Positions 758 through 28,721 of a stretch of DNA of 29,037 nt are shown here, piece by piece; within the stretch, counting starts at the first letter, position 1; every line of letters starts with the position of its first letter. The DNA is taken from positions 1 to 29,037 of IMG/VR virus record IMGVR_UViG_3300045988_046105; one strand, given 5' to 3'. Source of the DNA: a virus (lineage: Duplodnaviria; Heunggongvirae; Uroviricota; Caudoviricetes). The notes under the pieces were generated by a model. It was given only the letters and a program-made list of their open reading frames with translations. It made no database searches and was not told where the DNA came from. Position numbers and translations under genes: made by a program.

Positions 758-970
758 ATGCCAAAAATACGCTACGACCTTGAAGATATGAGAGATAACT
801 CAGCAAATTTTCCGAAAGAGGTTAAATTTCTCATGCATAAGTATGGTTGCGCCAGGATGGATATAGTTATCGACAGTCAGCACCCTTGCGGCGAGGATGT
901 AATTTTCATTCGCGGTAAATGGGAAGGGTATCTTGACGAGAGTTTTTACGATGAATTTGATGGACTTTGA
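758..970 (+). CDS. hypothetical protein (70 aa)
   Basis: In-frame ATG 758 with AAGGTG SD 4 nt upstream; the track's 737 start is a GTG lying inside the palindrome. No recognisable domain. Confidence 0.45.
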   Translation: MPKIRYDLEDMRDNSANFPKEVKFLMHKYGCARMDIVIDSQHPCGEDVIFIRGKWEGYLDESFYDEFDGL

Positions 971-1011
971 ATACTGCCGCCAACTATGGCGGCTTTATTT
1001 TGCATGGTACT

Positions 1012-1028
1012 ATTACCACAACGGTAAC
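1012..1028. promoter_or_regulatory. operator-like palindrome ATTACC-ACAAC-GGTAAC (site S0) within an 11-bp direct repeat ACTATTACCAC x2 (1009-1019, 1027-1037)
   Basis: Read directly; matches the ATTACC-N5-GGTAAT motif found at five other sites. Lies 17 bp upstream of the terminase small subunit ATG. Confidence 0.35.
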
Positions 1029-1044
1029 TATTACCACGGTGGTT

Positions 1045-1641
1045 ATGATGCCTGCTGAACCTAAAACCTATAAACGCAAATCAACGCAATTTAAGCCACT
1101 AACAGCAATGCAGGAGGCTTATTGCCAGTCATACATCAAAACGCCTGAAAACCAGACTCAGGCAGCGATTAATGCAGGATTCTCCCCAAATACAGCGGCA
1201 GTTAAAGCCAGTGTCATGATGCGCGATGAACGCATTCAAAAACGGATTGCCGAGTTGATGGAGGAGCGCAACAAACGAATGCGCGTCAGTGCTGATTACG
1301 TTCTCATGCGCCTGGTGGAGATCGACCAGATGGACGTGATCGACATCCTCAACGACGATGGGAGCCTTAAGCCAATCCGCGAGTGGCCGAAAATCTGGCG
1401 CACTACGCTTAGCGGCTTTGATCTGTCATCGACCATCATGAACATGAACGAGGATTCGATAGAGACAATCCTCAAAAAAATTAAATGGCCTGACAAGGTG
1501 AAGAACCTCGAACTGATTGGTAAGCACGTCGACGTCAACGCATTCAAAGAACGCCTGGATGTTAATGTGAATGTGACAATTGCTGATCGCATAGCAGCAG
1601 CCAGGAAGCGACTCAAAGAACGTCAGGATGGTAATCAGTGA
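1045..1641 (+). CDS. terminase small subunit
   Basis: ORF 967..1641 (TTG start); a more plausible start is the ATG-ATG pair at 1045. Sequence ...AAINAGFSPNTAAVKASVMMRDERIQKRIAEL... is typical of phage small terminase families (recollection). Stop overlaps the large-subunit start. Confidence 0.7.
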   Translation: MMPAEPKTYKRKSTQFKPLTAMQEAYCQSYIKTPENQTQAAINAGFSPNTAAVKASVMMRDERIQKRIAELMEERNKRMRVSADYVLMRLVEIDQMDVIDILNDDGSLKPIREWPKIWRTTLSGFDLSSTIMNMNEDSIETILKKIKWPDKVKNLELIGKHVDVNAFKERLDVNVNVTIADRIAAARKRLKERQDGNQ

Positions 1642-3113
1642 CAGATACAGTGTTATCTCCTGAAGAGCAGTTGATCGAGGATATTGCAGGGTTCACTCAC
1701 GATCCGCTTGGCTATGCCCTCTATGCGTTCCCGTGGGGGGAAGAGGGGACTGAACTGGCACATGCTACCGGTCCACGTCAGTGGCAGGCCGATGCGTTCC
1801 GAGAGATACGTGATCACCTGCAGAATCCAGAGACGCGTTATCAGCCGCTTATGCTGGCACGTGCTTCTGGTCACGGTATTGGTAAATCCGCATTCATCTC
1901 AATGCTCATCAACTGGGGCATGTCCACTTGCGAGGATTGTAAGGTCGTGGTGACCGCCAACACCGACAACCAGCTACGAACGAAGACCTGGCCGGAAATT
2001 ATCAAGTGGTCGAACCTTGCTATCACGAAAGACTGGTTTACCTGTACCGCTACCGCGATGTACAGCAATGACCCTGGGCACGACAAGCGGTGGCGGGCTG
2101 ATGCAATACCCTGGTCTGAGCACAACACTGAGGCATTCGCCGGACTACACAACGAGCGCAAACGCATCATCGTGGTATTCGATGAAGCGTCGAACATTGC
2201 GGATCTGGTGTGGGAAGTTGCTGAGGGTGCGCTTACGGACGAAGACACTGAGATTATCTGGGTGGCGTTCGGAAACCCTACACGTAATACCGGGCGTTTT
2301 CGCGAATGTTTCCGCAAATACAAACACCGCTGGAAAACTGCGCAGATTGACAGCCGGACGGTGGAAGGTACTAACAAACAGCAGTTGCAGAAATGGGTTG
2401 ATGACTACGGGGAAGACAGCGACTTCGTTAAAATCCGTGTGCGCGGCATATTCCCTGATGCATCTGAATTGCAGTTTATCCCTACCGGTCTTACTGATGA
2501 GGCCATGAAACGGGTGGTAACCGCTGCGCAGGTTGCACATGCTCCGGTGATAATCGGCGTTGACCCGGCATACTCCGGAGTTGATGACGCTGTGATATAC
2601 CTGCGGCAGGGGCTACACAGTAAGGTGCTGTGGACTGGCAACAAGACTACCGACGATCTGATTATGGCGAAGCGTATCGCTGACTTTGAAGACCAGTATC
2701 AGGCTGACGCGGTGTTCATCGACTTCGGTTACGGAACCGGTTTGAAGTCAATCGGTGACGGCTGGGGGCGTACATGGCAACTTGTTCCGTTCGGTGGCGC
2801 GTCTACTGACCCGCAGATGCTCAACAAGCGTGGGGAGATGTTCAATTCATGCAAGACATGGCTGAGGCTTGGCGGCATGCTGGATGACCAGGAAACAGCA
2901 GACGACCTGTCGGCGGCAGAGTACAAAGTTCGAGTGGACGGTAAAATCGTTATCGAACCGAAGGAAGATATCAAGGAGCGGCTTGGGCGTTCGCCTGGTA
3001 AAGGCGATGCGCTACTGCTGACGTTTGCTTTCCCGGTGTCAAAGCGCCTGCGAATTCCCGGGCAGCAGAACCAGCAAGGCAAGGCCATTACAGATTACGA
3101 TCCCTATGCTTAA
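1638..3113 (+). CDS. terminase large subunit
   Basis: 491 aa; Walker A-like GHGIGKS, acidic ...VVFDEAS..., position and size. GTG start overlapping the upstream stop (GTGA). Confidence 0.9.
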   Translation: MTDTVLSPEEQLIEDIAGFTHDPLGYALYAFPWGEEGTELAHATGPRQWQADAFREIRDHLQNPETRYQPLMLARASGHGIGKSAFISMLINWGMSTCEDCKVVVTANTDNQLRTKTWPEIIKWSNLAITKDWFTCTATAMYSNDPGHDKRWRADAIPWSEHNTEAFAGLHNERKRIIVVFDEASNIADLVWEVAEGALTDEDTEIIWVAFGNPTRNTGRFRECFRKYKHRWKTAQIDSRTVEGTNKQQLQKWVDDYGEDSDFVKIRVRGIFPDASELQFIPTGLTDEAMKRVVTAAQVAHAPVIIGVDPAYSGVDDAVIYLRQGLHSKVLWTGNKTTDDLIMAKRIADFEDQYQADAVFIDFGYGTGLKSIGDGWGRTWQLVPFGGASTDPQMLNKRGEMFNSCKTWLRLGGMLDDQETADDLSAAEYKVRVDGKIVIEPKEDIKERLGRSPGKGDALLLTFAFPVSKRLRIPGQQNQQGKAITDYDPYA

Positions 3114-3203: not shown

Positions 3204-3575
3204 TTATTGCTCGCTTAACTTCTGCTTCAGCAAGTAACCTTCAAGCATCCAGATTTTGTTTACAGCATTCTGCCGGGCAATCTTCCGACCAATTCCCGCA
3301 TCAAAGTTTTCCGGGCTTGCACAGGCGCTCTCTCCGGTGACGGTGAAGCCGTTGCGCAGCACCAGAACGCAGAACGTCAGCAGAGAAAGTGATTCGTGCG
3401 GCTGGTAGTTTACCTCTCCGCCAGTATGTTTCGCTTTTATGGCTACGCCAAAGACACCATCTTCTGCTGTGAAATATGCCTCCTGAGCAATAATGCTCTC
3501 GATATGGTCTGGCGTAACGCGCGGCGCGGCTAAACCTTTAGCCTGAATTTCAGATTCAATGTCTTTGTCACTCAT
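3204..3575 (-). CDS. conserved small phage protein of unknown function (123 aa); family not confidently identified
   Basis: Strong SD AAGGTGAG 8 nt before ATG; motif ...LLTFCVLVLRNGFTVTGESACASPENFDAGIGRKIARQNAVNKIWMLEGY... recalled from many enterobacterial prophage proteins. Opposite strand to all flanking virion genes. Confidence 0.65.
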   Translation of the reverse strand: MSDKDIESEIQAKGLAAPRVTPDHIESIIAQEAYFTAEDGVFGVAIKAKHTGGEVNYQPHESLSLLTFCVLVLRNGFTVTGESACASPENFDAGIGRKIARQNAVNKIWMLEGYLLKQKLSEQ

Positions 3576-3778: not shown

Positions 3779-3855
3779 TGGCGTGGCATGCAGGATTCGA
3801 ACCTGCGACCAACCGCTTAGAAGGCGGTTGCTCTGTCCAACTGAGCTAATGCCAC
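3779..3855 (-). tRNA. tRNA-Arg (anticodon UCU), 77 nt, CCA encoded
   Basis: Hand-folded reverse complement GTGGCATTAGCTCAGTTGGACAGAGCAACCGCCTTCTAAGCGGTTGGTCGCAGGTTCGAATCCTGCATGCCACGCCA: 7-bp acceptor, 4-bp D stem, 5-bp anticodon stem, loop CUUCUAA, 5-bp T stem with TTCGAAT loop. Confidence 0.9.
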
Positions 3856-4176: not shown

Positions 4177-4193
4177 CTTACCTGAAGGGTAAT
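4177..4193. promoter_or_regulatory. operator-like palindrome CTTACC-TGAAG-GGTAAT (site S6) upstream of the portal operon
   Basis: Read directly; sits in the ~420-bp non-coding region 3856-4282 about 90 bp upstream of the first structural-operon ATG. Confidence 0.4.
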
Positions 4194-4503: not shown

Positions 4504-6183
4504 ATGGCGGAAACAACTAAAGAGCGATTGAACAAACAGTTCGCACAACTTGAAAGCGAGCGTCAGTCGTTCGAGCCGCACTGGCGCGAGTTGAGTGATT
4601 ACATCAACCCGCGTGGTTCCCGCTTTCTGACTTCTGAGGTCAACCGTAACGATCGACGCAATACACGCATTATTGATTCGACCGGGACTATGGCGGCGCG
4701 CACTCTCGCCAGCGGCATGATGTCAGGCATCACAAGCCCCGCCCGTCCGTGGTTTCGCCTGGCTACGCCAGATCCTGAAATGATGGATTATGGCCCTGTT
4801 AAGTTGTGGCTTGAGGCGGTGCAGAACCGCATGAACGATATGTTCAATAAGTCGAATCTCTACCAGTCTCTTCCGCAGTTATACGGAAGCCTCGGCACAT
4901 ACAGCACTGGTGCAATGGCGGTGCTGGAGGATGACGAGGACATCATTCGCACAATGCCATTCCCTATAGGCAGTTACTACCTGGCTAACTCACCTCGTGG
5001 CAGTGTGGACACCTGTTTCCGCAAGTTCTCTATGACTGTTCGTCAGCTTGTTCAGGAGTTCGGGCTAAATAACGTCAGCGAATCCGTAAAAAGCATGTGG
5101 GAAAGCGGCACCTACGAGAAGTGGATTGAAGTGATGCATTCGGTTTACCCGAACATTGACCGCGATACATCGAAGCTGGATAGCAAGAACAAGCCATTCA
5201 AATCGGTTTATTACGAGGTTGGTGGCGATAACGACAAGTTGTTGCGTGAGTCCGGATTCGATGAGTTTCCAATTATGGCTCCGCGCTGGGAAGTTAACGG
5301 CGAAGATGTTTATGGATCATCATGCCCGGGTATGCTGGCGCTTGGACCTGTTAAGGCATTGCAGCTTCTCCAGAAGCGCAAGTCGCAGTTGATTGATAAA
5401 GCCACCAATCCGCCGATGGTTGCTCCGACTTCCCTCAAGAATCAGCGCGCCTCCCTTCTTCCTGGCGACATCACGTATATCGATCAGATTACTGGTCAGG
5501 ATGGCTTCAGGCCTGCTTATCTGGTTAACCCCAGTACAGCAGATTTGGTGGCAGACATTCAGGACACCCGTCAAATCATTAACAGCGCCTACTTTGTCGA
5601 TCTGTTCATGATGTTGCAGAACATCAATACCCGCTCGATGCCTGTTGAAGCGGTAATCGAAATGAAAGAAGAAAAACTTCTGATGTTGGGGCCGGTTCTG
5701 GAGCGTCTGAACGACGAATGTCTTAATCCTCTCATTGACCGCGCTTTCTCGATGATGGTGCGTAAAAACATGCTGCCGCCACCGCCTGACGCGATGGAAG
5801 GCATGCCCCTGAAGGTCGAATACATTTCCGTCATGGCTCAGGCGCAGAAGTCTATCGGCCTGTCCAGTCTGGCGTCCACGGTTAACTTCATTGGTCAACT
5901 TGCGCAAGCGAAACCAGAAGCTCTCGACAAACTCAACGTTGATCAGGCGATCGATGCATTCGCTGATATGTCCGGAGTGTCTCCAACCGTCATTGTTCCG
6001 CAGGAACAGGTTGAGCAGGCTCGCCAGCAACGGGCACAGCAGCAACAGCAGCAACAAATGATGGCGATGGGGATGGCGGCGGCACAGGGTGTCAAGACGC
6101 TAAGTGAAGCTAAAACTTCGGATCCGAGTGTGTTGTCAGCTATGGCGAATGCAGTTAGTGGTCAGGGTGGGCAATCACAATGA
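4504..6183 (+). CDS. portal (head-to-tail connector) protein, T7 gp8-like
   Basis: 559 aa; overall pattern and Q/M-rich C-terminus (QQQQQQQMMAMGMAAAQG) resemble T7 gp8 as recalled; position after terminase. Confidence 0.85.
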   Translation: MAETTKERLNKQFAQLESERQSFEPHWRELSDYINPRGSRFLTSEVNRNDRRNTRIIDSTGTMAARTLASGMMSGITSPARPWFRLATPDPEMMDYGPVKLWLEAVQNRMNDMFNKSNLYQSLPQLYGSLGTYSTGAMAVLEDDEDIIRTMPFPIGSYYLANSPRGSVDTCFRKFSMTVRQLVQEFGLNNVSESVKSMWESGTYEKWIEVMHSVYPNIDRDTSKLDSKNKPFKSVYYEVGGDNDKLLRESGFDEFPIMAPRWEVNGEDVYGSSCPGMLALGPVKALQLLQKRKSQLIDKATNPPMVAPTSLKNQRASLLPGDITYIDQITGQDGFRPAYLVNPSTADLVADIQDTRQIINSAYFVDLFMMLQNINTRSMPVEAVIEMKEEKLLMLGPVLERLNDECLNPLIDRAFSMMVRKNMLPPPPDAMEGMPLKVEYISVMAQAQKSIGLSSLASTVNFIGQLAQAKPEALDKLNVDQAIDAFADMSGVSPTVIVPQEQVEQARQQRAQQQQQQQMMAMGMAAAQGVKTLSEAKTSDPSVLSAMANAVSGQGGQSQ

Positions 6184-6476
6184 CAGATTACGAAGACGAT
6201 CAACTGAAAGAAGAAAACGCCCGTAAGCAACGTGACATGGCACAGCGTGAAATTGATGACATTCGCTTTGTCATGAGCAGTGAACAGGGGCGTCGCGTTG
6301 TCTGGTCGGTGCTGGAGAAAGGCCGTGTGTTTTCCGCTATCTCTCCGATGGATGCTATGGCAATGGCATTTAATGAGGGGCAACGCAATCTGGCGCTGGA
6401 ACTGTTTCAGCGCGTTATGGCGCATTGCCCTGAACAGTATTTGAAGATGGCCAAAGAGGCCAGTGAACAGGAGTGA
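6180..6476 (+). CDS. hypothetical virion-module protein (98 aa)
   Basis: ATG overlaps portal stop (ATGA); acidic small protein; no family recognised. Confidence 0.5.
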   Translation: MTDYEDDQLKEENARKQRDMAQREIDDIRFVMSSEQGRRVVWSVLEKGRVFSAISPMDAMAMAFNEGQRNLALELFQRVMAHCPEQYLKMAKEASEQE

Positions 6477-6478
6477 TC

Positions 6479-7174
6479 ATGAATTTATTTGAGCGTTTGC
6501 TGTATCGCCGTCTTTGCAATGAGCAACCAGTCGATGGTGGAGCAGCTCCGGCTGCGTCAGAACCGTCAGCGCCTGCAGGTGATAACCCTGCTCCAGTTGG
6601 TGATCCATCACAACAGGAAGGTGATAAGCCACAACCTGTTGCTGATGGCGATAAACCTGCTGATGACAAAAAGCCTGAAAACGATAAGCAGGATGAAAAA
6701 AAGGACGGCGATAAACCAGAGGGTGCGCCTGAGAAGTACGAGTTTCAGGCTGCCGAAGGCGTAGAGCTGGATACAGAAGCGTTGAAGGAATTCGAGCCGG
6801 TGGCGCGAGAACTAAACCTGACCAACGAGCAAGCGCAAAAGCTGGTTGATGCTTATCCGAAGATTCTGGCAGGTGTGCAGCAGCGCCAGGCAGAAGCCTG
6901 GCAGAAAACAACCGAGCAGTGGGCTGCTGATGTAAAAGCTGACAAAGAAATCGGTGGCGACAAGTTGATTTCTAACCTTAGCGCCGCACAGCGTGCGCTT
7001 GACCAGTTCGGGACACCTGAGCTCAAAGAATATCTGAACACCACCGGACTGGGTAATCACCCTGATCTGGTCAAAACGTTCGTGAAAATCGGAAAGGCGA
7101 TGTCTGAGGATGGCATGGTCACCGGTGGTAATGAAGGCCAGCGTAGTGCGGCCGAAGTGCTCTATGGCAAATAA
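6479..7174 (+). CDS. scaffolding protein (predicted)
   Basis: ATG 6479 with AGGAG SD (track start 6473 is GTG). Acidic low-complexity N-half (DGDKPADDKKPENDKQDEKKDGDKPE) and helical C-half; sits between portal and major capsid. Confidence 0.65.
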   Translation: MNLFERLLYRRLCNEQPVDGGAAPAASEPSAPAGDNPAPVGDPSQQEGDKPQPVADGDKPADDKKPENDKQDEKKDGDKPEGAPEKYEFQAAEGVELDTEALKEFEPVARELNLTNEQAQKLVDAYPKILAGVQQRQAEAWQKTTEQWAADVKADKEIGGDKLISNLSAAQRALDQFGTPELKEYLNTTGLGNHPDLVKTFVKIGKAMSEDGMVTGGNEGQRSAAEVLYGK

Positions 7175-7188: not shown

Positions 7189-8175
7189 ATGGCTGTTAAA
7201 GGCTTAACTGCGCTAACGCTGGCTGACTGGGGTAAGCGCGTCGATCCAGATGGGAAAGTCGATAAGATTATCGAGCTTCTCGGTCAAACTAACCCGATCC
7301 TTCAGGATATGCCTTTTGTCGAAGGGAACCTTCCTACCGGACACAAAACCACCATTCGTTCTGGTTTACCTTCAGCTACCTGGCGTTTGTTGAACTATGG
7401 CGTACAACCAAGCAAATCAACCACAGTGCAGGTCACCGATTCCATTGGTATGTTGGAAACCTATGCTGAAGTCGATAAGTCACTGGCTGATCTGAGCGGC
7501 AATACCGCCGAATTCCGCCTGTCTGAAGACCGCGCATTTATTGAAGCGATGAATCAGCAGATGGCGCAGACGCTGTTTTATGGTGATTCCAGCGTTAACC
7601 CTCAGCAGTTTATGGGACTGTCCTCCCGCTATTCCAGCCTGTCTGCGGGTAATGCTCAGAACATCATTGATGCTGGTGGCACGGGTACAGATAACACCTC
7701 AATCTGGTTAGTGGTGTGGGGCGAAAACACCGTGCATGGCATCTTCCCGAAAGGGCAGAAGGCTGGCATCCAGATGGAAGATAAAGGCCAGGTGACACTG
7801 GAAGATGCTAGTGGCGGCAAGTACGAAGGCTATCGTACCCATTACAAATGGGATAACGGACTTTCTCTGCGTGACTGGCGTTATGTTGTTCGCATTGCAA
7901 ACATCGATGTCAGCAATCTTTCAGAACCTTCCTCTGCCGCAAATATTGCGAAGTTGATGGTTAAAGCACTGCATCGCATTCCAAATCGTGGCATGGGTCG
8001 CCCGGTGTTCTACATGAACCGCACTGTAGGCCAGGCTCTTGATCTGCAATCTCTGGAGAAAACATCTCTGGCGATCAGCGTAAAAGAGACAGAAGGAGAG
8101 TGGTGGACTTCATTCCGTGGTGTACCAATCCGTGAAACTGATGCGCTTCTGGAAACAGAAGCCCGCGTGGTGTAA
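7189..8175 (+). CDS. major capsid protein
   Basis: 328 aa, strong SD GAGAGG, directly after scaffold; size and position; family not identified without a search. Confidence 0.8.
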   Translation: MAVKGLTALTLADWGKRVDPDGKVDKIIELLGQTNPILQDMPFVEGNLPTGHKTTIRSGLPSATWRLLNYGVQPSKSTTVQVTDSIGMLETYAEVDKSLADLSGNTAEFRLSEDRAFIEAMNQQMAQTLFYGDSSVNPQQFMGLSSRYSSLSAGNAQNIIDAGGTGTDNTSIWLVVWGENTVHGIFPKGQKAGIQMEDKGQVTLEDASGGKYEGYRTHYKWDNGLSLRDWRYVVRIANIDVSNLSEPSSAANIAKLMVKALHRIPNRGMGRPVFYMNRTVGQALDLQSLEKTSLAISVKETEGEWWTSFRGVPIRETDALLETEARVV

Positions 8176-8226: not shown

Positions 8227-8664
8227 ATGATCACCGACAAACTGTTGATGTTCTCCGAAGCACAGGCGGTAATTGATACCGCGGCTTCTACTGACGTAAT
8301 CGATCTCGGTCCAATTGACGGAAAACGTCGTGATATCGGCGTTGGTTACCCGCTTGAGTTTTGGGCGCTGGTTAACACAGCCGCCGCGGCAAGCGGTGAT
8401 GCAACTGTAAACATCCAGTTGCAGACGAGTGAGAATAACAGCTCATGGACCACTATTTATGATAGTGGCGCACTGGCAAAGACCGCCCTGACAGCAGGTA
8501 AACGAGTTGTTTCTGCAAAGGTGCCTGCCGGTGTTCAGCGATATCTGCGTGTTAACTACTCCGTCGCAACTGGCCCACTAACGGCTGGCGAATTCACTGC
8601 TGGTATCAGTCTTGATGTTGATGCCAATACGCCGTATCCGATCCGCTCAAAAGTAACTGGTTAA
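8227..8664 (+). CDS. capsid decoration / structural protein (predicted)
   Basis: 145 aa, beta-rich, SD GGAGAAAG, immediately downstream of major capsid gene. Confidence 0.45.
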   Translation: MITDKLLMFSEAQAVIDTAASTDVIDLGPIDGKRRDIGVGYPLEFWALVNTAAAASGDATVNIQLQTSENNSSWTTIYDSGALAKTALTAGKRVVSAKVPAGVQRYLRVNYSVATGPLTAGEFTAGISLDVDANTPYPIRSKVTG

Positions 8665-8674
8665 GGTGATATCG

Positions 8675-17788: not shown

Positions 17789-17793
17789 ATTAA

Positions 17794-20876: not shown

Positions 20877-20901
20877 AGGCCGCTTTCGCGGCCTTGTTTT
20901 T
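20877..20901 (+). terminator. intrinsic terminator of lipoprotein gene
   Basis: AGGCCGC-TTTC-GCGGCCT followed by TGTTTTTA. Confidence 0.6.
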
Positions 20902-21061
20902 AACGAATGCCACCGCCACCCGGGCGGGAATCCGCAGAACGCCCACCGCAGCGGGAGCCGTCAGCAGCAGTGTCGCTGTCGTGCTGACAACGACCGGCAA
21001 AGGCCTGAGTTGAAGCTACCAGAGACAACAAAACGAACAGTGCAGCAAATGCTTTTTTCAT
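20900..21061 (-). CDS. small secreted Cys-containing peptide (53-aa precursor; ~31-aa mature Gly/Arg/Asp-rich peptide)
   Basis: Internal ATG 21061 gives MKKAFAALFVLLSLVASTQAFA-GRCQHDSDTAADGSRCGGRSADSRPGGGGIR: classic signal peptide with AxA site, two Cys, E. coli-like codons. SD is weak. Confidence 0.35.
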   Translation of the reverse strand: MKKAFAALFVLLSLVASTQAFAGRCQHDSDTAADGSRCGGRSADSRPGGGGIR

Positions 21062-21133
21062 TGTTAAATTTCCATCTATAAGCCACCTCAATGTGGCGTT
21101 AATGAGTGTAGCACTGACTTTTGTTTCGTCCAC

Positions 21134-21154
21134 AAAAAAGCCCGCAGCGCGGGC
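21134..21154 (-). terminator. intrinsic terminator directly after stop of 21155..21694
   Basis: Minus strand: GCCCGC-GCU-GCGGGC followed by UUUUUU. Confidence 0.6.
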
Positions 21155-21694
21155 TTACCAAAACTTGTACCACGGGGATTTATCCTTCAATGGACAATCC
21201 TTCCATCGTGTGGCCAACCATTCATATTCTTTAAAATATGTGTTTATGTTTTCTTTTTCTCTAATGGCTTGTATAAGAGGTAGCGCAATCTGATAGTTAT
21301 TTACAACGGAGCTGTAAAATACTTCCTTAATCATGGTCTCATCATAAGTTTTCCGCTTCACGCTCACAGCCATGCGTTCGTAGAAACCTAGACAGTAAAT
21401 TATTTCTCTCTTCTCTGTCTTTTCTTCATCCGTAAGATCAGCCTGCCCATTGCTTGGATACATATAAGAGCGGAATGATTTGTTCGATTCGTGAATGCGG
21501 CGCATAGTAGATAGGCCTTTCTTATAATCTACATCAAACCTGCTTTCACCAAGGAATACTGAAGTGTGTACTTTTCTCGCTGTATTTACATTATAAATAA
21601 TAGTAGCGATAGCTATGAACAAGCCAAGCGAAACCGCGACTGCACTTACGATTTGAGCCACAGCCATGGCAAATTGCATTTCTTCACTTAACAC
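21155..21694 (-). CDS. membrane-anchored protein with ~150-aa predicted cytoplasmic domain (candidate exclusion/abortive-infection factor)
   Basis: GTG 21694 with GGAGA SD 6 nt upstream (alternative ATG 21679). One long N-terminal TM helix followed by basic residues. AT-rich. No family recognised. Confidence 0.55.
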   Translation of the reverse strand: MLSEEMQFAMAVAQIVSAVAVSLGLFIAIATIIYNVNTARKVHTSVFLGESRFDVDYKKGLSTMRRIHESNKSFRSYMYPSNGQADLTDEEKTEKREIIYCLGFYERMAVSVKRKTYDETMIKEVFYSSVVNNYQIALPLIQAIREKENINTYFKEYEWLATRWKDCPLKDKSPWYKFW

Positions 21695-21903: not shown

Positions 21904-22596
21904 TCAGAAGAACCCTGCTTTGTCGTTGATGTACTCCGCGTGCGTCTGGATATCACGCAGGCATTTGCTCACACCAACGATGTAGCAGAACATGGTGGTC
22001 AGCTCCGCCGCCGCGCCCGATACATCGTGCCCGTCTTCCTGTAACTGGTTCAGCAGATTCATCAGCAGTGAGTTTTCCGTCAGGCCGAGAACACCAGACG
22101 GCGAGTGAATCAGGCTGCGGTAGCCGGGCTTCAGTGGGGCGCTGTAGGTTTTGTTCTCTATCTTCATTGCCTGCATCACTGCTGATGCTGTGGCGTTGGC
22201 TACCTGGTCGGCAACCATCTTTATGCGTTCTTCCTGCGGGAGCGAGTTTTTAATGTAACTTCCGGTGCGGCGGATCTGAGGAAGAACCTCACCTGTAACC
22301 CATTCAAGAAATCTGAATGCTCTCGTTCCCTCAGTCATTGCCTCTTTGCAACGCAGAATAAGGATGTAGAGACCTGATTCTGAAACGATGGATAGTTCTT
22401 GTATTCCACCAGGGGTCTGTATTGAATACAGCCCCTTTTTGTTCCAGCCTTTTTTATCAAGTTTTCTCGCTTGTGTAACATCAATATTCAAAGCATTGCA
22501 CACATCTTTGGTGACAAACCAAGGTTCTCCGTCAATCATGAACATACGGATCTGGCAGGATGACTCAAAGGAAAAGATGGAAGGTTTGGTATTCAT
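21904..22596 (-). CDS. Bro-N domain protein with distinct ~80-aa C-terminal domain (antirepressor-like)
   Basis: ATG 22596 with AAGGTGA SD (track ORF extends to 22641 via non-ATG start). N-terminus FESSCQIRMFMIDGEPWFVTKDV...GLYILILRCKEAMTEGTRAFRFLEWVTGEVLPQIRRTG matches the Bro-N pattern (recollection); C-terminal domain is paralogous to 23743..24000. Confidence 0.75.
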   Translation of the reverse strand: MNTKPSIFSFESSCQIRMFMIDGEPWFVTKDVCNALNIDVTQARKLDKKGWNKKGLYSIQTPGGIQELSIVSESGLYILILRCKEAMTEGTRAFRFLEWVTGEVLPQIRRTGSYIKNSLPQEERIKMVADQVANATASAVMQAMKIENKTYSAPLKPGYRSLIHSPSGVLGLTENSLLMNLLNQLQEDGHDVSGAAAELTTMFCYIVGVSKCLRDIQTHAEYINDKAGFF

Positions 22597-22745
22597 GGCG
22601 ATCACCTTTGTAGTTAGGTTAATCACCACCGCTGAGACCAATCAGATGGTGGTGAACTGTGCAGAGTTGGTCTTACCGGCTACAAAGGAACCCGGCGCAC
22701 CTTTCGGTGCCCCCACACAGCCCACCATAGAATAGGTGCGCTTTA

Positions 22746-22843
22746 CACATAAAAAAACCGCTTATGCGGCATATGTGCCTCTGTAGTAATCCGGGAGACC
22801 AATCCCGGCACTGGATTTTGCCAGTGCCCGATTACTATGGCAC
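22746..22843 (-). ncRNA. structured 5' leader / candidate small RNA upstream of Bro-N gene, ending in hairpin plus U7
   Basis: Nested helices: GTGCC(22775-79)/GGCAC(22839-43) and GTAATC/GATTAC enclose two stem-loops (CCGGGA-N6-TCCCGG; GGCACTGG-N6-CCAGTGCC); then CCGC-N4-GCGG plus U7 (22751-22769). The 69-aa ORF over this region has no ATG and spans promoter elements. Confidence 0.35.
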
Positions 22844-22862: not shown

Positions 22863-22879
22863 TTTACCGCAAAGGTAAT
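22863..22879. promoter_or_regulatory. operator-like palindrome TTTACC-GCAAA-GGTAAT (site S1) overlapping -10/+1 of predicted Bro-N promoter
   Basis: Read directly; minus-strand promoter TTGATT-N18/19-TATCAT predicted by eye. Confidence 0.45.
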
Positions 22880-22955: not shown

Positions 22956-22972
22956 ATTACCTTTAAGGTAAT
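22956..22972. promoter_or_regulatory. operator-like palindrome ATTACC-TTTAA-GGTAAT (site S2) just upstream of RBS of 22992..23720, plus half-site ATCACC-TGAAA at 22938-22948
   Basis: Read directly; perfect 6-5-6 dyad. Confidence 0.45.
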
Positions 22973-22991: not shown

Positions 22992-23720
22992 ATGGAAGTT
23001 TTCTGGATAGTTGTTGGTGTGGTTGCGGTGATTATTTACGTTATCAACCAGAACAAGACTAAGATCTCTGATCGTACGGTCGTTAATCATAACAAAACGA
23101 TAAAGACCGAAGATGGGGAGATAACGATTAATCGTACACAGGTGATAGAACACACCTCTACTCAGTTTCAAAAAACTGGAGGTAATGCGCCTAATATTTC
23201 CGCACCTCCTGCTTATGATAGTGCGGTAATCCAGACATATTATAAACAGCAGGAGTTAGCAAAAGAGAGGCAACTGATTCAGCCAAAGCCGTTTACAGCT
23301 GAGCTTCCACCTGGAGTGTCAATGCGTCCGGCATATCATGGAAGATTCCCTGGTGATGACATATCGTCTCAGTCATCTAAAAAAGCACCTCAGGCAGTAT
23401 CAGAGCCAGCAAGAATACCTTCTGTATCGCCGCCAAAAGAAGAATCAGCTAACAGAGTTTCAAGTGGTAGCAAGCAGTGCTTGCGATGCAGAATAAACCT
23501 ACCATATGAAAAATTCAGGAAATCGTCAAAAAATCCAGATGGATTGACTAAGTGGTGTGCAAGGTGTCTCGATGGCCCAAAGAATACACGCCATATGAAG
23601 TGGTGCCCAATTTGTAATGTCCGCAGAAAACGAACAAGCTTTTACCCTAATAATCAAAATGCGGATGGCTTAATGGCATGGTGCAAAACGTGCTGGGACG
23701 AGCACAAAGCGAAACGATAG
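22992..23720 (+). CDS. membrane-anchored protein with Pro-rich linker and tandem C-terminal zinc-ribbon-like repeats
   Basis: SD GAGGA 6 nt upstream; N-terminal TM helix; two repeats of C-x2-C-x17/18-(P/A)DGL-x3-WC-x2-C (CLRC...PDGLTKWCARC and CPIC...ADGLMAWCKTC). Confidence 0.6.
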   Translation: MEVFWIVVGVVAVIIYVINQNKTKISDRTVVNHNKTIKTEDGEITINRTQVIEHTSTQFQKTGGNAPNISAPPAYDSAVIQTYYKQQELAKERQLIQPKPFTAELPPGVSMRPAYHGRFPGDDISSQSSKKAPQAVSEPARIPSVSPPKEESANRVSSGSKQCLRCRINLPYEKFRKSSKNPDGLTKWCARCLDGPKNTRHMKWCPICNVRRKRTSFYPNNQNADGLMAWCKTCWDEHKAKR

Positions 23721-23744
23721 GCCGCTCTTGCGGCCTTTAAATTT
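23720..23744 (+). terminator. terminator hairpin between convergent genes
   Basis: GGCCGC-TCTT-GCGGCC followed by TTTAAATTT. Confidence 0.5.
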
Positions 23745-24000
23745 ACCGGGTTTGTTTTCGTAATTGTTCGGCACAATAGTCGAGATGTGTTTGCAGATCC
23801 CGCATAGACATCTGTGAGCTGGTGACGTAGTTAATCAGTGCAGTCAGTTCGGCAAGTGGGCCATCGACATTAAATCCATCCTTATCGAGATCCCGGAGTA
23901 ATTTCATCAAGTGCGATCCCTCCACCAGTGACCTGACGCCTCCCGGCGTGTGAATCCTTTCGGTAAATCCGTCTTCCAGTGGATAGTGATACCGCTGCAT
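23743..24000 (-). CDS. small protein (85 aa) paralogous to the C-terminal domain of the Bro-N protein; predicted SOS-inducible antirepressor-like factor
   Basis: ATG 24000 with GGAGA SD 8 nt upstream (track ORF starts further upstream at a non-ATG). Roughly 45 percent identity by eye to the Bro-N C-terminal region. LexA-box-like palindrome 22 bp upstream. Confidence 0.6.
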   Translation of the reverse strand: MQRYHYPLEDGFTERIHTPGGVRSLVEGSHLMKLLRDLDKDGFNVDGPLAELTALINYVTSSQMSMRDLQTHLDYCAEQLRKQTR

Positions 24001-24021
24001 CTTATCTTCTCCATGCAATAA

Positions 24022-24037
24022 CTGTATATTTATACAG
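24022..24037. promoter_or_regulatory. LexA (SOS) box CTGTATATTTATACAG overlapping predicted -10 of the small-gene promoter
   Basis: Matches CTGT-N8-ACAG with AT-rich spacer (consensus TACTGTATATATATACAGTA); sits on a TATAAAT -10-like element of the minus-strand promoter. Confidence 0.65.
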
Positions 24038-24075
24038 TAGCAAATAATTTGTTTGCTATCCAGCACGTTTTGCAA

Positions 24076-24092
24076 ATTACCTGAAAGGTAAT
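24076..24092. promoter_or_regulatory. operator-like palindrome ATTACC-TGAAA-GGTAAT (site S3); half-site TTTCAGGTAAT at 24132-24142
   Basis: Read directly; perfect 6-5-6 dyad between the small LexA-box gene and the tailspike gene. Confidence 0.45.
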
Positions 24093-24195
24093 ATCTATTC
24101 GTATTTACAGCCTTTTTATCCATATGTGGTTTTTCAGGTAATAGAATAACCAGATATGCGGCGCAACGGGTGCTGCGACTATCTGGAGATTTAAC

Positions 24196-26325
24196 ATGAC
24201 GGTCTCAACCGAAGTTGACCACAACGAATACACCGGTAACGGCGTTACGACATCGTTTCCGTATACTTTTCGAATTTTCAGAAAATCAGACCTGGTTGTT
24301 CAGGTGTCTGACCTGAACGGGAACGTAACAGAATTGGTCCTGGATACCGGTTATACGGTAACTGGGGCGGGCACTTATAGTGGCGGTTCTGTGGTTCTTC
24401 CGTCTCCGCTTGCTACTGGCTGGCGAATTACGATAGATCGTGTGCTTGATGTAGTGCAGGAGACAGACCTTCGCAATCAGGGAAAATTTTTCCCCGAAGT
24501 GCATGAAGATGCCTTTGACTACCTGACGATGCTGATCCAGCAATGTTTTGGGTGGTTCAGACGTGCATTGATGAAGCCCTCTCTGCTTGCAAAATATTAC
24601 GATGCAAAGCAAAACAGAATTTCTAACCTTGCAGATCCATCACTTGAGCAGGATGCTGTAAATAATCGCTCAATGCGTAATTATGTCGATGCTGCAATCG
24701 CCGGGGTTGTTGGTGGTTTTGGTTGGTTTATTCAGTATGGTTCTGGGGCTGTGTACCGAACGTTCCAGGATAAGATGAGAGACACCATTAGTGTTCGTGA
24801 TTTTGGTGCAAAAGGAGACGGCATAACAGATGATACTGTAGCAATTCAAAATGCTATTAATGCAGTACCAGAAGGGGCTATACTTGGATTTTATGGTGGT
24901 GAATTTGTTTTTGATAAGGTTGAATTGTTTAAGCCAATAACATTAGTTGGTGATGCAACGTTAATTCACAACGGATTTAGAATAAAATCTAGCAGAATCC
25001 GATCACTTTTATCTGGCGTTCAGAAATGCAAGGATTACTCCGAGTCTTCAAGAGCATTTTATTGCTATGCAAATGAAGACCAAAGAGATTATGACGATAT
25101 TCAGATTTTATTTAATAGATTTGAAGGTTTCTTTTACTCTACGGCATTTGTTGCAAAAAACTATTATTTGGAGAATGACCCTAATTCAAGAATTGTCAAA
25201 AACACAAAAGTAATAGGGTGTACATCAGTTGCTCCTGATTCTGTAAATGCCGGTCATTTTCAACATATAGGCGTTACAAATGCTGAAACATCACATAACT
25301 CAACTTATGGCGGACAAAATGCAACATCATACAACTTCATTAACCAGAATGGATTTGTAAGGATTATAGGAAATTATGACCATAACAATAGCTATGGTTC
25401 ATGTGAGCTTGAGAACTCAATGGTGAGTAACTCAGTCATATCAGGTAATACGTTTTCGTCATATTTATGGGTGGATGATACAAGTAATGTTACTATTTCT
25501 GGAAATACCGTTTCATCAAGGATCAAAGTAACATCGCAAACTGACGATGTTCATAATATAACCATATCAGCAAATACCACAAAACGGATTACTATAGAGC
25601 AATTTGGAGAATCGCCGACAGGTCTGGTATATGGTGCATTAATTTCCTGCAACACTATTACTGGCGACAGTGATGGAAGTTCAGACATTTTATGTGCGTC
25701 ACTTGTTACAGGTGAAATTTCATCAAATTATTGTCATGGATCAGAAAAAAATATATCAATTGTCCGCCTGGATTCTTCTGATATAACTGTTAGAAACAAT
25801 AAAGGAAACAAAGGATTACTTACAATAAGTAACGATGGTGGAAGGATAATTGAATATGGCAATGATTCTATGGTTCTGTCTGGAAGCATAGATAGCAGAC
25901 ATATACATAATTTATTACATCCAGACACATCGTATTTAGACCTACCGGGGAAATATCTGCACGGAACTAAATATACTGGCAGTATCCCCCCCGGTTCCAC
26001 AGGAACTGTATCACTTCAAATACCATCAGGGGCAAGCCTTGTTTTCAGGGGCGTTTCTATATGGGTTCTAATTAGAGATGTTAGCAATAACAATATATCG
26101 TCATTCAGAATTGATGGTTCATATAGAGTTGTTGGTGGAAGTGTTGGTCTTAGTTTTGCTGATGCTTATTCGAAACTCGGGGTGGATGCAAACTCTATAA
26201 CAGTGTCAAACAATAACAGCACTTCTGGCAATATCAGCATAGCAATTAAAAACACAGATTCATCAAAAACCCTTCAGGTTACTGTTATGCCGGAGGTTTC
26301 AAGCAGGTTAGGTATTGAGGAATAG
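24196..26325 (+). CDS. tailspike protein with beta-helix (pectate-lyase-like) receptor-binding/depolymerase domain
   Basis: 709 aa, SD TGGAGA; conserved-looking N-terminal module then DFGAKGDGITDDTVAIQNAI motif typical of right-handed beta-helix glycanases; C-terminal two-thirds AT-rich with Asn/Ser/Thr-rich repeats. Confidence 0.85.
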   Translation: MTVSTEVDHNEYTGNGVTTSFPYTFRIFRKSDLVVQVSDLNGNVTELVLDTGYTVTGAGTYSGGSVVLPSPLATGWRITIDRVLDVVQETDLRNQGKFFPEVHEDAFDYLTMLIQQCFGWFRRALMKPSLLAKYYDAKQNRISNLADPSLEQDAVNNRSMRNYVDAAIAGVVGGFGWFIQYGSGAVYRTFQDKMRDTISVRDFGAKGDGITDDTVAIQNAINAVPEGAILGFYGGEFVFDKVELFKPITLVGDATLIHNGFRIKSSRIRSLLSGVQKCKDYSESSRAFYCYANEDQRDYDDIQILFNRFEGFFYSTAFVAKNYYLENDPNSRIVKNTKVIGCTSVAPDSVNAGHFQHIGVTNAETSHNSTYGGQNATSYNFINQNGFVRIIGNYDHNNSYGSCELENSMVSNSVISGNTFSSYLWVDDTSNVTISGNTVSSRIKVTSQTDDVHNITISANTTKRITIEQFGESPTGLVYGALISCNTITGDSDGSSDILCASLVTGEISSNYCHGSEKNISIVRLDSSDITVRNNKGNKGLLTISNDGGRIIEYGNDSMVLSGSIDSRHIHNLLHPDTSYLDLPGKYLHGTKYTGSIPPGSTGTVSLQIPSGASLVFRGVSIWVLIRDVSNNNISSFRIDGSYRVVGGSVGLSFADAYSKLGVDANSITVSNNNSTSGNISIAIKNTDSSKTLQVTVMPEVSSRLGIEE

Positions 26326-26401
26326 CATCATATATAATTATTTTAATGTTAATGCCGTCTTCTTGTTGGCGGCTTATTTGTGAAAATCGAATGAGTTATT
26401 T

Positions 26402-26701
26402 ATGATGAATATAGAAGTTGATATAACACCAATTCTTCACGCACTTTGCGCTGTTGTCGCACAAGTTCTGGTCGGTCTTTTTACCGGAAACTGGGCTTAC
26501 GGTGCGATAGCCGGTTGTACGTTCTTCATTGCGCGTGAACACACCCAGGCAGAATATCGCTGGATAGAAAAGTTTGGGAAAGGGAAACGTATCAACATGC
26601 CGTGGTGGGGAGGTTTTGATCCGCGCGTATGGGATGTTGGAAGCCTGTTTGACTTTGTTGTTCCTGTTACTGTTTGTTTTTGTGTTTATTTCTCTATTTG
26701 A
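26402..26701 (+). CDS. small membrane protein (3 predicted TM segments)
   Basis: 99 aa, hydrophobic; weak SD; first gene after tailspike. Confidence 0.4.
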   Translation: MMNIEVDITPILHALCAVVAQVLVGLFTGNWAYGAIAGCTFFIAREHTQAEYRWIEKFGKGKRINMPWWGGFDPRVWDVGSLFDFVVPVTVCFCVYFSI

Positions 26702-26914
26702 CTGCTACCGCGCCATTTGATGGTGCGGAATTCAACTAATCCTCTATATTTTGAATCATTTCTGTACTGCAATCTCTTCAGAGTTATGTAAAAGGCAAGC
26801 CTTATTATCGACATGAAAGGAAGGGGATTGACAATACATGGGTAACAAAAAACCATAAATGGTTTATCATGCGTAATGCCTTTACTATTCAGGAGGTAGT
26901 TATGCATATAAACG

Positions 26915-27328
26915 GTGGAAAACATGTCAGCTCAACTAACCAGTGAAACTTTAAATCAGTGGCTTAGCATGAGTTCTCTGGCGGCGGTGATAGCAGGAGC
27001 TCCTCCTGAGGTTGCTTTGGGGGCTTTGGCTGGGGCGGTAATTTTTGTTACCTCTGCGGTAGAGTATCCTATTCGTCGTCGTGTACTCTTGTCGATGCTT
27101 AGCTTTCTCTGCGGCCTTCTTTTTTATAAACCAGCAGCATCAATTCTTATCGGCATAGCCAGCCTGATCCCTACCATCACGCAGGACTCTTTTGAAAAAG
27201 GGATTGTTTTCTCAGCTGGCGCATTCGTGTCAGCAATTGTTGCTGTGCGTATTGGTATATGGCTCTATCACCGTTCCGATAATCCACGCGAGTTAATTCC
27301 GGGGAGAAAAGACGATGGTAACGCATGA
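26915..27328 (+). CDS. holin-like membrane protein
   Basis: 137 aa, 3-4 predicted TM helices, charged C-terminus; two in-frame starts (GTG 26915, ATG 26924); position upstream of endolysin. Confidence 0.5.
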   Translation: MENMSAQLTSETLNQWLSMSSLAAVIAGAPPEVALGALAGAVIFVTSAVEYPIRRRVLLSMLSFLCGLLFYKPAASILIGIASLIPTITQDSFEKGIVFSAGAFVSAIVAVRIGIWLYHRSDNPRELIPGRKDDGNA

Positions 27329-27623
27329 GTTTTTTTTGCTTATCACCAATGCAGTTATTTGTACTGGCATAGCAATTCGCGTTGTCACATTCCGGCGTAA
27401 CGGCTCTCAACATCGAAGATGGGGAGGGTGGCTTGCTTATTTCCTTATTGTTGCTGCGGCCAGTATTCCTGTTCGTGTCGTCTATGCAATCTGGTTACGC
27501 ACGCCAATGGCTGTGGATTTATCTGAGGTCATTATCAACGCTGTCATGCTCGCCGCGGTTATTAAAACACGCGGTAACGTTGTTCAGATTTTCAAAATAT
27601 CGAGGTCTAAACATGGAGATTAA
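27315..27623 (+). CDS. membrane protein (second holin/antiholin-like)
   Basis: 102 aa, 3 predicted TM helices, SD GGGGAG; end overlaps endolysin start. Confidence 0.45.
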
Positions 27624-28242
27624 ACAATTCCAGCGAGCTGCTGGTATTAGCGAGTCGCTGGCCGCACGCTGGTTCTCGCATATAACTTCTGCGATGAAAG
27701 AGTTTGGTATCAGCAAAGCAGAAGATCAGGCAATGTTTATTGCTCAGGTCGGGCATGAGTCTGGGGGCTTCACCCGGTTGCAGGAGAATTTCAACTACAG
27801 CGTCAGCGGTCTGGCTAACTTTGTTCGGGCTGGGCGTCTCACTCAGGGACAGGCCAACGCATTGGGGCGACGCGCAGGCGAACCACCATTGCCACTTGAG
27901 CGCCAGAGAGCGATTGCCAATCTGGTGTACAGCAAACGCATGGGGAACAATGCCCCCGGCGATGGCTGGAATTACCGTGGCCGCGGACTTATCCAGATTA
28001 CCGGTTTGAATAACTATCGTGATTGCGGAAACGGCCTGAAAGTGGACCTGCTGGAGAATCCTGAACTGTTGGCGCAGGACGAATACGCGGCTCGTAGCGC
28101 GGCGTGGTTCTTCTCCAGCAAAGGTTGCATGAAGTATACCGGCGATATTGCACGTGTAACTCTGATTATCAATGGTGGCAGGAATGGCATCGACGACCGG
28201 CGCGCGCGGTACGTCACTGCCAGTAAGGTGCTGGCTGTATGA
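27613..28242 (+). CDS. endolysin, glycoside hydrolase family 19 (chitinase-like) type
   Basis: Internal ATG 27613 (track ORF starts upstream at 27382); motifs [12 protein letters not shown] and [15 protein letters not shown] typical of GH19-type phage endolysins (recollection). Confidence 0.8.
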
Positions 28243-28721
28243 TCTGGTCATTCGTAAAAGCATACCGTAAACAGTTGATTATCATGGCGGTGCTTGCTGT
28301 TCTGGTCATATCAGGAGTTGTTGCCTGGAATGTGCACGGCAGTCGTCAGTACGACGCTGGGTATGCACAGGCGAAAGAAGACCGCAAAACCGAAGATGAG
28401 AGAGTTCGTCAGCACTACGAACAGGAGAAATCGATCAATGAACGTGAAGCGCAGCAGAGGATCGACCAGGCGCGCAATGATGCTCTTGATGCTGCCGCTC
28501 GCGCTGGCCGGTTGCAGCAACAGCTCGTTGCCATCCGTGAGCAGCTCAGGCAGTATAACGCCACTGTCGGCGCTGGGTCGTCAGCCGCAGACACCGGAGT
28601 TTTGCTTGCCGACGTGCTCGAAAAATCTCTCGAACGAAACCGGCAACTGGCAGAATACGCTGACCGGGCAGCTGAAGCCGGAAGGGTCTGCGAAAGACAG
28701 TACGATGAACTAACCAGGTAG
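28239..28721 (+). CDS. Rz: i-spanin (Rz-like)
   Basis: ATG overlaps endolysin stop (ATGA); N-terminal TM helix then charged coiled-coil-like region; embedded +1-frame lipoprotein gene. Confidence 0.7.
28438..28713 (+). CDS. Rz1: o-spanin (Rz1-like) lipoprotein embedded in Rz in another frame
   Basis: ATG 28438 inside ORF 28294..28713 gives [26 protein letters not shown] (lipobox LAGC) followed by a Pro-rich short mature peptide. Confidence 0.6.
   Translation: MNVKRSRGSTRRAMMLLMLPLALAGCSNSSLPSVSSSGSITPLSALGRQPQTPEFCLPTCSKNLSNETGNWQNTLTGQLKPEGSAKDSTMN

Follow-up and report, generated by a model that had tools for sequence, protein, structure and literature searches.

For Salmonella phage epsilon15 (NC_004775), a mosaic T7/non-T7 relationship has been described before (Hardies et al. 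2016, PMC4819975): its terminase and capsid group with siphoviruses, which was read as interfamily transfer. The epsilon15 record and that of phiV10 (NC_007804) both give the classification Uetakevirus. Here we analysed a 29,037-nucleotide (nt) stretch of the IMG/VR virus record IMGVR_UViG_3300045988_046105 (positions 1 to 29,037; 'the window' below means this whole stretch), for which the original prediction had described a temperate podovirus of unnamed lineage in which portal, tail and internal proteins form a T7-like module. Every element that it listed is present at or close to the place it gave, and the lineage can now be named. We conclude with high confidence that the window comprises the late half (virion and lysis genes) and an accessory and regulatory island of a Uetakevirus prophage that belongs to the phiV10/phiv142-3 lineage, is integrated, and stops at attR in the guaA 3′ end. 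This phage type is common, named and well studied, and all mechanistic elements described here are already in the literature or in RefSeq.

Lineage, gene order and integration site

A whole-genome comparison to temperate podoviruses, proposed as a check of the original prediction, gave a collinear match at ~97% nucleotide identity to Uetakevirus phages. In a megablast search of GenBank phages, positions 1-25000 of the window aligned at this identity with Escherichia phage phiv142-3 (MN187550; 84% covered), with E. coli O157 typing phages 9 and 10 (82%) and with phiV10 (80%). Enterobacter phage Tyrion and epsilon15 followed at 76-81% identity, epsilon15 reaching 76% across 38% of the same part. 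The right-hand part (24100-28847) was 98.9% identical to phiv142-3 at the nucleotide level, and protein identities to phiV10 were mostly 96-100%. phiv142-3, phiV10, the two O157 typing phages and vB_EcoP_ZX5 have the same terS-to-Rz gene order as the window and share with it the att core at guaA, Ant, the LexA box and the operators. At least 80% of the query was contained in 234 of 5,426 complete E. coli genomes. We found nothing that contradicts the Uetakevirus assignment, and the temperate lifestyle read from the sequence beforehand is supported by Ant, the LexA box, the operators and attR.

Compared with phiV10, the window adds the accessory genes at 20252-21694 and the open reading frame (ORF) at 22992-23720, carries a different tailspike receptor domain and is without the oac gene; the two share a C4/IsrK-BRO module. 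epsilon15 and SPC32H have the same genome architecture as the window. Identity to epsilon15 is high for TerL (94%), the nozzle (88%), the adaptor (85%), Ant (84%) and the portal (81%), falls to only 35-43% for the major capsid, cement, gp9-like and staple proteins, and to only 28-32% for internal proteins of 600 and 824 amino acids (aa). Like the window, epsilon15 has the operator motif at the same places and a LexA box before ant; where the window has accessory genes, it carries O-antigen polymerase conversion genes.

The right end of the prophage could be placed precisely. The att core in the window is ATTGAGTGGGAATAATC, and the published attP/attB core common to phiV10, epsilon15 and ZX5, at the guaA 3′ end, is attgagtgggaatgatt (PMC9782041); compared with the latter, the window copy has two host-side mismatches. 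Phage similarity runs out at ~28847, at the att core. The search for att sites and an integrase that had been suggested thus succeeded in one part, with attR located; the integrase is outside the window because, in related phages, it sits at the opposite prophage end, adjoining guaA. Integrase, the Rep repressor and a replication module are present in phiV10, epsilon15 and a related prophage of E. coli FDAARGOS_1301 (NZ_CP070111.1 4833756-4883051). That prophage appears tandemly duplicated: immediately after one integrase-to-Rz set come another integrase and the early genes once more, and the protein accessions of the repeated genes are identical.

Beyond attR, the host flank is of Klebsiella pneumoniae type. 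It had no megablast match in the 5,426 complete E. coli genomes and was 99-100% identical to K. pneumoniae ATCC 13883. In ATCC 13883 the same site is occupied by a related prophage that is only ~75% identical, and integration at Klebsiella guaA is therefore plausible. E. coli contigs with the identical tailspike have a different flank, bearing DUF5384 and TraT-like genes that are probably yfgI and yfgH. The phage part of the window, tailspike included, shares 97-99% identity with phages that were isolated on E. coli.

The virion module and its kinship with T7

T7 shares with the window the portal, gp13 and gp14 families, the adaptor fold, a distant nozzle kinship and the gene order. The predicted resemblance of the portal to that of T7 is borne out by their common Pfam family PF12236, the T7 gp8 family, in which the window portal reached 624 bits and T7 gp8 379 bits; phrog_332 and phrog_449 matched both proteins reciprocally, and the portal of Carin-1 (PDB 8ck0) matched that of the window at E 2e-178. 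T7 gp13 matches the same phrog_308 as its homologue in the window (E 1e-42). The gp14-like protein, also named as such beforehand, does belong to one Pfam family with T7 gp14, which reached 160 bits in PF24072. The proposed gp11/gp12/internal-core order is likewise present, running from adaptor and nozzle through the gp13-like and gp14-like proteins to three large proteins.

For the adaptor, neither BLASTP and phmmer nor hhalign profiles gave any signal to T7 gp11, so a fold search was required. An AlphaFold2 (AF2) model with a pLDDT of 86.6 was matched by Foldseek to T7 gp11 (7box_M; E 8e-6, TM 0.56, probability 1.00) and to Carin-1 8ck1_E (E 4e-16; 33% identity in the structural alignment), with further matches to LME-1, PhiM1 and KP32 tail tubular protein A (5mu4). 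The modelled adaptor matches the T7 gp11 fold. For the nozzle, a profile of 35 diverse homologues aligned by hhalign with T7 gp12 at E 2e-4, with a probability of only 46%, over T7 residues 350-466, the central domain also reported by Hardies et al., who gave an HMM-HMM E<1e-10 (PMC4819975). Of these homologues, 15 matched PF25675 Phage_nozzle, the T7 gp12 family (best E 1.9e-13), and neither the window adaptor nor the nozzle itself reached PF17212 or PF25675. The nozzle model that AlphaFold2 built on a shallow alignment (82-91% identical sequences) had a mean pLDDT of 38 and was unusable. The closest solved portal, nozzle and adaptor structures are those of Cobetia marina phage Carin-1 (PDB 8CK0/8CK1) and Legionella LME-1 (9EFK), whose tails have been called T7-like (PMC12407071); these marine and Legionella phages have no nucleotide similarity to the window.

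Pairwise comparison of 23 window proteins with T7 gp8-gp19 (BLASTP, phmmer) gave nothing significant, the best hint being a stretch at the C-terminal end of the gp14-like protein in which 10 of 13 residues were identical, and a search of ten structural proteins against NCBIfam gave nothing useful. Judged from profiles and a structural model, the T7 relationship is ancient and detectable at the profile or fold level only. Hardies et al. 2016 reached the same conclusions for epsilon15 (PMC4819975).

The T7-like virion core of the original prediction holds for the portal, tail and ejection proteins, and does not extend to the capsid shell and terminase, which are in other families than those of T7. 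The capsid is of the epsilon15/BPP-1 type, with PF20911, PF21628 and PF21190 all far above their cut-offs; the corresponding T7 protein, gp10, belongs to PF21703. In the terminase, TerS falls in PF03592 as against PF11123 in T7, and TerL in phrog_5902 and phrog_2 as against phrog_38 and PF22530. The putative scaffold or protease (6473-7174) had no Pfam match.

Three large proteins follow the gp14-like protein. The first, of 837 aa, has a lytic transglycosylase-like domain at about residues 248-403 (PDB 9vvp_L, E 8.6e-39; 7q47 endolysin, E 2e-17), so that this domain is in the gp15-position protein of the window as opposed to gp16 in T7. Together (13476-20268) the 837-, 600- and 824-aa proteins fit T7 gp15/gp16 in position and size, as does the transglycosylase domain of the first. 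In epsilon15, gp17 has been described as the counterpart of T7 gp16, or internal virion protein (IVP) D, with gp15 and gp16 as IVP-C candidates (PMC4819975). The gp14-like protein is 64% and the 837-aa protein 89% identical to phiV10, against 97-99% for the flanking genes, and on these identities 12924-15989 looks like a patch of local recombination within the operon of ejection proteins.

Lambdoid-style packaging had also been proposed, with the terminase ahead of the portal. The gene order is as described: terminase, portal, head and tail, then a holin-endolysin-Rz/Rz1 cassette, which is an organisational resemblance to lambdoid phages only. The enzyme family is a different matter, as the window has no lambda-type cos terminase (Nu1/A). 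In tblastn, TerL relatives were the epsilon15 group, then 'terminase B' of Clostridium, Bacillus and Streptomyces siphoviruses, then P1 PacB; lambda-group phages were absent from the listed TerL matches and from the organism tallies (445 matching records). TerL had no Pfam match, no PDB sequence match and no similarity to T7 gp19. By sequence relationship it is neither T7-like nor lambda-like, being related to P1 PacB/'terminase B' rather than to lambda Nu1/A, and from this family membership we infer headful (pac) packaging.

The lysis cassette is as predicted, with two holin-family proteins, a GH19 endolysin and Rz with an embedded Rz1. T7, too, has its holin and spanins after the fibre gene, so where the lysis genes stand does not in itself set the window apart from T7. 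The phage of the window is temperate and has tailspikes, whereas T7 has fibres.

Repressor operators, antirepressors and accessory genes

With at most one mismatch allowed, the window has 8 copies of the motif TTACC-N5-GGTAA where 0.46 would be expected, a count reached by 0 of 100 shuffles; phiV10 has 14 copies, with 0.65 expected. The sites are found in control regions between genes, ahead of terS, ahead of the portal operon and in the gap from ant to the tailspike gene; phiV10 additionally has them around its repressor gene. They are identical in form and position to the ATTACC-N5-GGTAAT sites that the epsilon15 RefSeq record annotates as 'repressor', including the homologue of the terS operators at 12-27 (protein_bind 'repressor; lysogeny'). 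From this shared motif we regard them as putative repressor operators, in agreement with the operator control suggested beforehand. The notion of an unreported genome-wide 'stoperator-like' operator set was rejected, as epsilon15 RefSeq already annotates homologous sites as 'repressor; lysogeny'.

The operators before terS bear on where the gene begins. TTG 967 is the longest-ORF start of TerS and the one annotated in phiV10. The resulting extension holds the terminator-like hairpin at 976-993 and the two operators at 1013-1045, and TerS of epsilon15 starts 35 nt past its operator; for these reasons the true start is probably ATG 1047. Terminators are annotated at the corresponding end of the phiV10 and epsilon15 genomes. 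The 115-aa gp49 homologue is a candidate late-gene regulator. Its gene is the last but one ahead of the terminator and the late-operon operators. Further along, the tRNA-Arg (TCT) gene is located between terL and the portal operon; its phiV10 counterpart (2856-2929, minus strand) is absent from the RefSeq annotation and is overlain by a hypothetical coding sequence on the opposite strand, PhiV10p04 (2672-2923).

The involvement of LexA that had been predicted turned out to be a matter of DNA: a near-consensus box precedes ant, and family searches of the window found no LexA or CI-like repressor gene. The box, AACTGTATATTTATACAGTA, agrees at 18 of 20 positions with the LexA consensus TACTGTATATATATACAGTA. 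A CTGT-N8-ACAG box stands at the same position before the same gene in phiV10 (20822) and epsilon15 (19841). The small Ant downstream is ~85% identical to SPC32H Ant (PDB 5D50, a structure that a note in the epsilon15 RefSeq record assigns to Salmonella phage SPC32H). LexA-controlled Ant is reported to inactivate the repressor by binding (PMC7380047), and tetrameric Ant to split the DNA-binding Rep tetramer (PMC9638917, citing Kim et al. 2016).

A related Ant domain forms part of the BRO-N::Ant fusion, in which residues 164-237 (numbered on the 245-aa longest ORF, 21904-22641) are 43% identical to the 85-aa Ant (BLASTP E 1e-20). The prophage encodes two Ant domains (21904-22596 and 23743-24000) under different controls. 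The BRO-N::Ant gene begins 49 nt downstream of the C4 RNA, whose a1/b1 target region overlaps the IsrK-family RNA; RF03163 scored 39.9 bits, below its gathering score of 46.7. Of the two operators in the divergent control region, the one at 22864-22878 abuts the -10 of a promoter-like site (22907-22878) reading into IsrK/C4/BRO, and the one at 22957-22971 is just upstream of ORF 22992. phiV10 has the same C4/IsrK RNAs (20278-20463, minus strand), which are absent from its RefSeq annotation; part of that region is labelled 'similar to hypothetical protein SF0880'. Both the RNAs and the BRO gene are absent from epsilon15. A 28-aa ORF called in related loci overlies the C4 RNA itself.

In immI of P1 and P7 the order is c4 antisense RNA, icd, ant, and Gifsy-1 has IsrK followed by anrP. 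The C4/IsrK-BRO arrangement of the window resembles P1 immI and Gifsy-1 IsrK-anrP: the points in common are a C4 RNA and an IsrK-type leader directly before an antirepressor gene, and a repressor operator at the promoter. What differs from P1 and Gifsy-1 is the downstream gene, here a BRO-N::Ant fusion with an SPC32H-type Ant domain. No icd-like ORF was noticed at the locus, where no systematic search for one was made. We regard C4/IsrK-BRO::Ant as a modest elaboration and no new kind of system. In the related phage ZX5, overexpression of the BRO-type antirepressor promoted lytic growth (PMC9782041).

GC content drops from ~50% to 36-45% across 20-27 kb, a stretch that contains the accessory genes and the exchanged receptor domain of the tailspike. 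Ten accessory proteins gave no defence-system match in PADLOC. The 242-aa protein had weak matches to endonuclease VII, Lar-like proteins and PF12898; its gene, of low GC content, has a putative repressor operator ahead of it and is absent from phiV10 and epsilon15. The tailspike shares 99.6% identity with its phiv142-3 counterpart. Its residues 1-165 are 72% identical to epsilon15 gp20, and residues 194-709, encoded at about 36% GC, are 47-52% identical to tailspikes of fBC-Eco01, St11Ph5 (G7C-like), Vectrevirus and Aeromonas phages. On these alignments the protein is modular, with an N-terminal Uetakevirus anchor of ~190 aa and a C-terminal receptor domain exchanged with unrelated phages. 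All features are listed in Table 1.

Table 1 Predicted features of the window in order of position
Feature	Position	Strand	Match or remark
115-aa protein, epsilon15 gp49 homologue	393-740	+	phrog_536 'transcriptional regulator'
TerS	967(1047)-1641	+	PF03592 Terminase_2, E 1.4e-29; 96% aa identity to phiV10 TerS
Terminator-like hairpin GCCGCCAACTATGGCGGC, then T run	976-993	+	Ends upstream early-right operon, before late-operon control region
Two putative repressor operators	1013-1027 TTACCACAACGGTAA; 1031-1045 TTACCACGGTGGTTA, one mismatch		Just upstream of terS
TerL	1638-3113	+	phrog_5902 and phrog_2; PacB/'terminase B' lineage
N4 gp49/Sf6 gp66 family protein	3204-3575	-	PF13876, E 1.5e-34
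tRNA-Arg (anticodon TCT)	3779-3855	-	ARAGORN; Rfam tRNA 73.3 bits
Putative repressor operator	4178-4192		Upstream of gp3-portal (head) operon; epsilon15 homologue 2931-2947 annotated 'repressor'
epsilon15 gp3 homologue, 68 aa	4283-4489	+	100% identity to phiV10p06, 88% to epsilon15 gp3
Portal	4504-6183	+	PF12236, E 1.5e-187
epsilon15 gp5 homologue, 98 aa	6180-6476	+	phrog_528; 99% identity to phiV10p08
Scaffold or protease, epsilon15 gp6 homologue	6473-7174	+	phrog_458 'protease', E 1.9e-111
Major capsid protein, epsilon15 gp7 type	7189-8175	+	PF20911 GP7, E 6e-149
Bbp16-family capsid cement protein	8227-8664	+	PF21190, E 1.5e-45
epsilon15 gp9 homologue	8666-9010	+	phrog_590
Capsid staple protein, epsilon15 gp10 type	9055-9384	+	PF21628, E 1.2e-51
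Portal-tail adaptor, T7 gp11 fold	9381-9989	+	AF2 model and Foldseek
Tail nozzle, distant T7 gp12 relative	9989-12460	+	Carin-1 nozzle 8ck1_A, E 1e-216, closest solved relative
Internal virion protein A, T7 gp13 homologue	12460-12924	+	phrog_308, E 3e-62
Internal virion protein B, T7 gp14 family	12924-13463	+	PF24072, 32.8 bits against cut-off 27
Internal/ejection protein, 837 aa, epsilon15 gp15 homologue	13476-15989	+	phrog_992, 1044, 7182
Internal/ejection protein, 600 aa, epsilon15 gp16 homologue	15986-17788	+	phrog_1145
Internal/ejection protein, 824 aa, epsilon15 gp17 homologue	17794-20268	+	phrog_684
Low-GC accessory block	20252-21694		Absent from phiV10 and epsilon15
62-aa membrane protein	20252-20440	+	
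Putative lipoprotein, 138 aa	20452-20868	+	
77-aa protein	20900-21133	-	
DUF4760 protein	21155-21694	-	
BRO-N::Ant fusion antirepressor	21904-22596	-	PF02498; phrog_130, phrog_450
C4 antisense RNA	22645-22732	-	Rfam RF01695, 78.6 bits against gathering score 45
IsrK-family RNA	22751-22827	-	Rfam RF01394, 74.7 bits against gathering score 50
Two putative repressor operators	22864-22878; 22957-22971		Divergent control region
242-aa protein, C-terminal zinc-ribbon-like repeats	22992-23720	+	phrog_6762
Ant, small SOS-controlled antirepressor, 85 aa	23743-24000	-	PDB 5d50_E 'Anti-repressor protein', E 3.5e-46, residues 2-84
LexA box	24021-24040		Overlaps ant promoter/transcript start region, 20 nt upstream of ant ATG
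Putative repressor operator	24077-24091		Between ant and tailspike; epsilon15 site 19895-19911 annotated 'repressor'
Tailspike	24196-26325	+	PF12708; C-terminal domain pectate-lyase-like
99-aa protein downstream of tailspike	26402-26701	+	phrog_1443
Holin-family membrane protein	26915/26924-27328	+	PF16931, E 2e-11
Holin-family membrane protein	27315-27623	+	PF05449, E 2e-27
GH19 (chitinase-like) endolysin	27613-28242	+	PF00182, E 1.5e-9; 96% identity to phiV10 endolysin
Rz i-spanin	28239-28721	+	PF10721 DUF2514, E 1e-39
Rz1 o-spanin, other frame inside Rz	28438-28713	+	Lipobox LALAGC
attR core	28832-28848		3′ end of guaA
Host chromosome flank, Klebsiella pneumoniae type	28849-29037		189 bases

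Competing explanations and a model of the life cycle

The portal, gp13-like and gp14-like families held in common with T7, the gp11 fold of the adaptor, and an order (gp8...gp11-gp12-gp13-gp14-large internal proteins-tail fibre) that matches T7 would also suit a piece of a lytic phage from the true T7 family (Autographiviridae). We give that reading next to no credence: there is no pairwise similarity to any T7 structural protein, the capsid, TerS and TerL families differ from those of T7, and the terminase genes are at the front rather than the end. Ant, the LexA box, the operators and attR indicate a temperate integrated element, and the complete phiV10 and epsilon15 genomes carry integrase and repressor and no annotated phage RNA polymerase; that annotation and the prophage state leave the single-subunit RNA polymerase and obligate lysis of Autographiviridae without a match here. 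A P22-like (Lederbergvirus) or other lambdoid temperate podophage was also considered, and the terminase-portal-head-tail-tailspike order, the exchangeable tailspike receptor domain, antirepressor control, the holin-endolysin-Rz/Rz1 cassette and the lambda-P-like replication protein of relatives all agree with it. It is nevertheless very improbable, given a portal of the T7 gp8 family, an adaptor of T7 gp11 fold with P22/Sf6 gp4 not among its fold matches, an epsilon15 gp7-type capsid with staple and cement proteins, TerL relatives that exclude lambda, and nucleotide matches to Uetakevirus with none P22-like or lambda-like.

It is unlikely, if less remote, that the sequence comes from a defective prophage remnant or an assembly chimera and not from a functional phage. 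The window holds only part of the element, a Klebsiella-type flank adjoins a phage 97-99% identical to E. coli phages, and some relatives are frameshifted, such as FDAARGOS_1301 with a peptidase pseudogene. However, all 30-odd window genes are full length relative to isolated plaque-forming relatives, the junction coincides exactly with the known att core, and the related prophage at the same K. pneumoniae ATCC 13883 site makes integration at Klebsiella guaA plausible. Some points also limit the assignment to an integrated Uetakevirus prophage and what we build on it. The window does not reach the genes for the repressor, integrase and replication, which lie to its left, and the host flank is of Klebsiella type, yet the closest phages were isolated on E. 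coli. T7 gp15/gp16 homology of the 600-aa and 824-aa proteins was undetectable by BLASTP and phmmer, and neither has PDB sequence relatives; their assignment as gp15/gp16 counterparts rests on the literature.

For the Uetakevirus prophage, we infer a model of lysogeny from homology and from published epsilon15/SPC32H work. Rep, encoded outside the window, would bind the ATTACC-N5-GGTAAT operators at the start of each transcription unit, here upstream of terS and of the portal operon, within the BRO/ORF242 control region, and in the gap separating ant from the tailspike gene. On induction, DNA damage would strip LexA from the box over the ant promoter, and the 85-aa Ant would bind Rep and break its DNA-binding tetramer, so that the whole genome would be derepressed; the BRO-N-fused Ant domain would be transcribed from its operator-gated promoter by way of the IsrK/C4 antisense-RNA leader. 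The pac-type TerS/TerL would then fill an epsilon15-type HK97-fold capsid (gp7, gp10 staple, Bbp16 cement) through a T7-type portal, with a gp11-type adaptor and a gp12-type nozzle carrying six tailspikes. The gp13-like, gp14-like and three large internal proteins would be packaged and later ejected to form a trans-envelope channel, one of the large proteins contributing the transglycosylase domain. Lysis would proceed by two holin-family proteins (a holin and possibly an antiholin), the GH19 endolysin and Rz/Rz1.

Implications for annotation, host range and prophage control

The window can be confidently labelled a Uetakevirus prophage, and the finding has little significance beyond correct annotation. 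The RefSeq entry for phiV10 misses the tRNA-Arg and the C4/IsrK RNA, and the annotated start of TerS is probably too far upstream. Both E. coli-type and Klebsiella-type flanks adjoin this phage type, the tailspike being identical, which bears on host-range inference from prophages. A more speculative proposal, which we consider doubtful when both its parts are taken together, is that E. coli-lineage uetakeviruses run a two-tier antirepressor circuit and that this copy, with its Klebsiella-type guaA flank and its 97-99% identity to E. coli phages, moved very recently between genera. As read from the gene and operator layout, the first tier may be the published SOS/LexA-triggered small Ant, and the second may be the BRO-N-fused Ant, transcribed once Rep leaves the promoter operator and gated by the IsrK/C4 leader. 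If this is true, the second tier could lock in commitment by feed-forward action, or could induce other prophages in trans.

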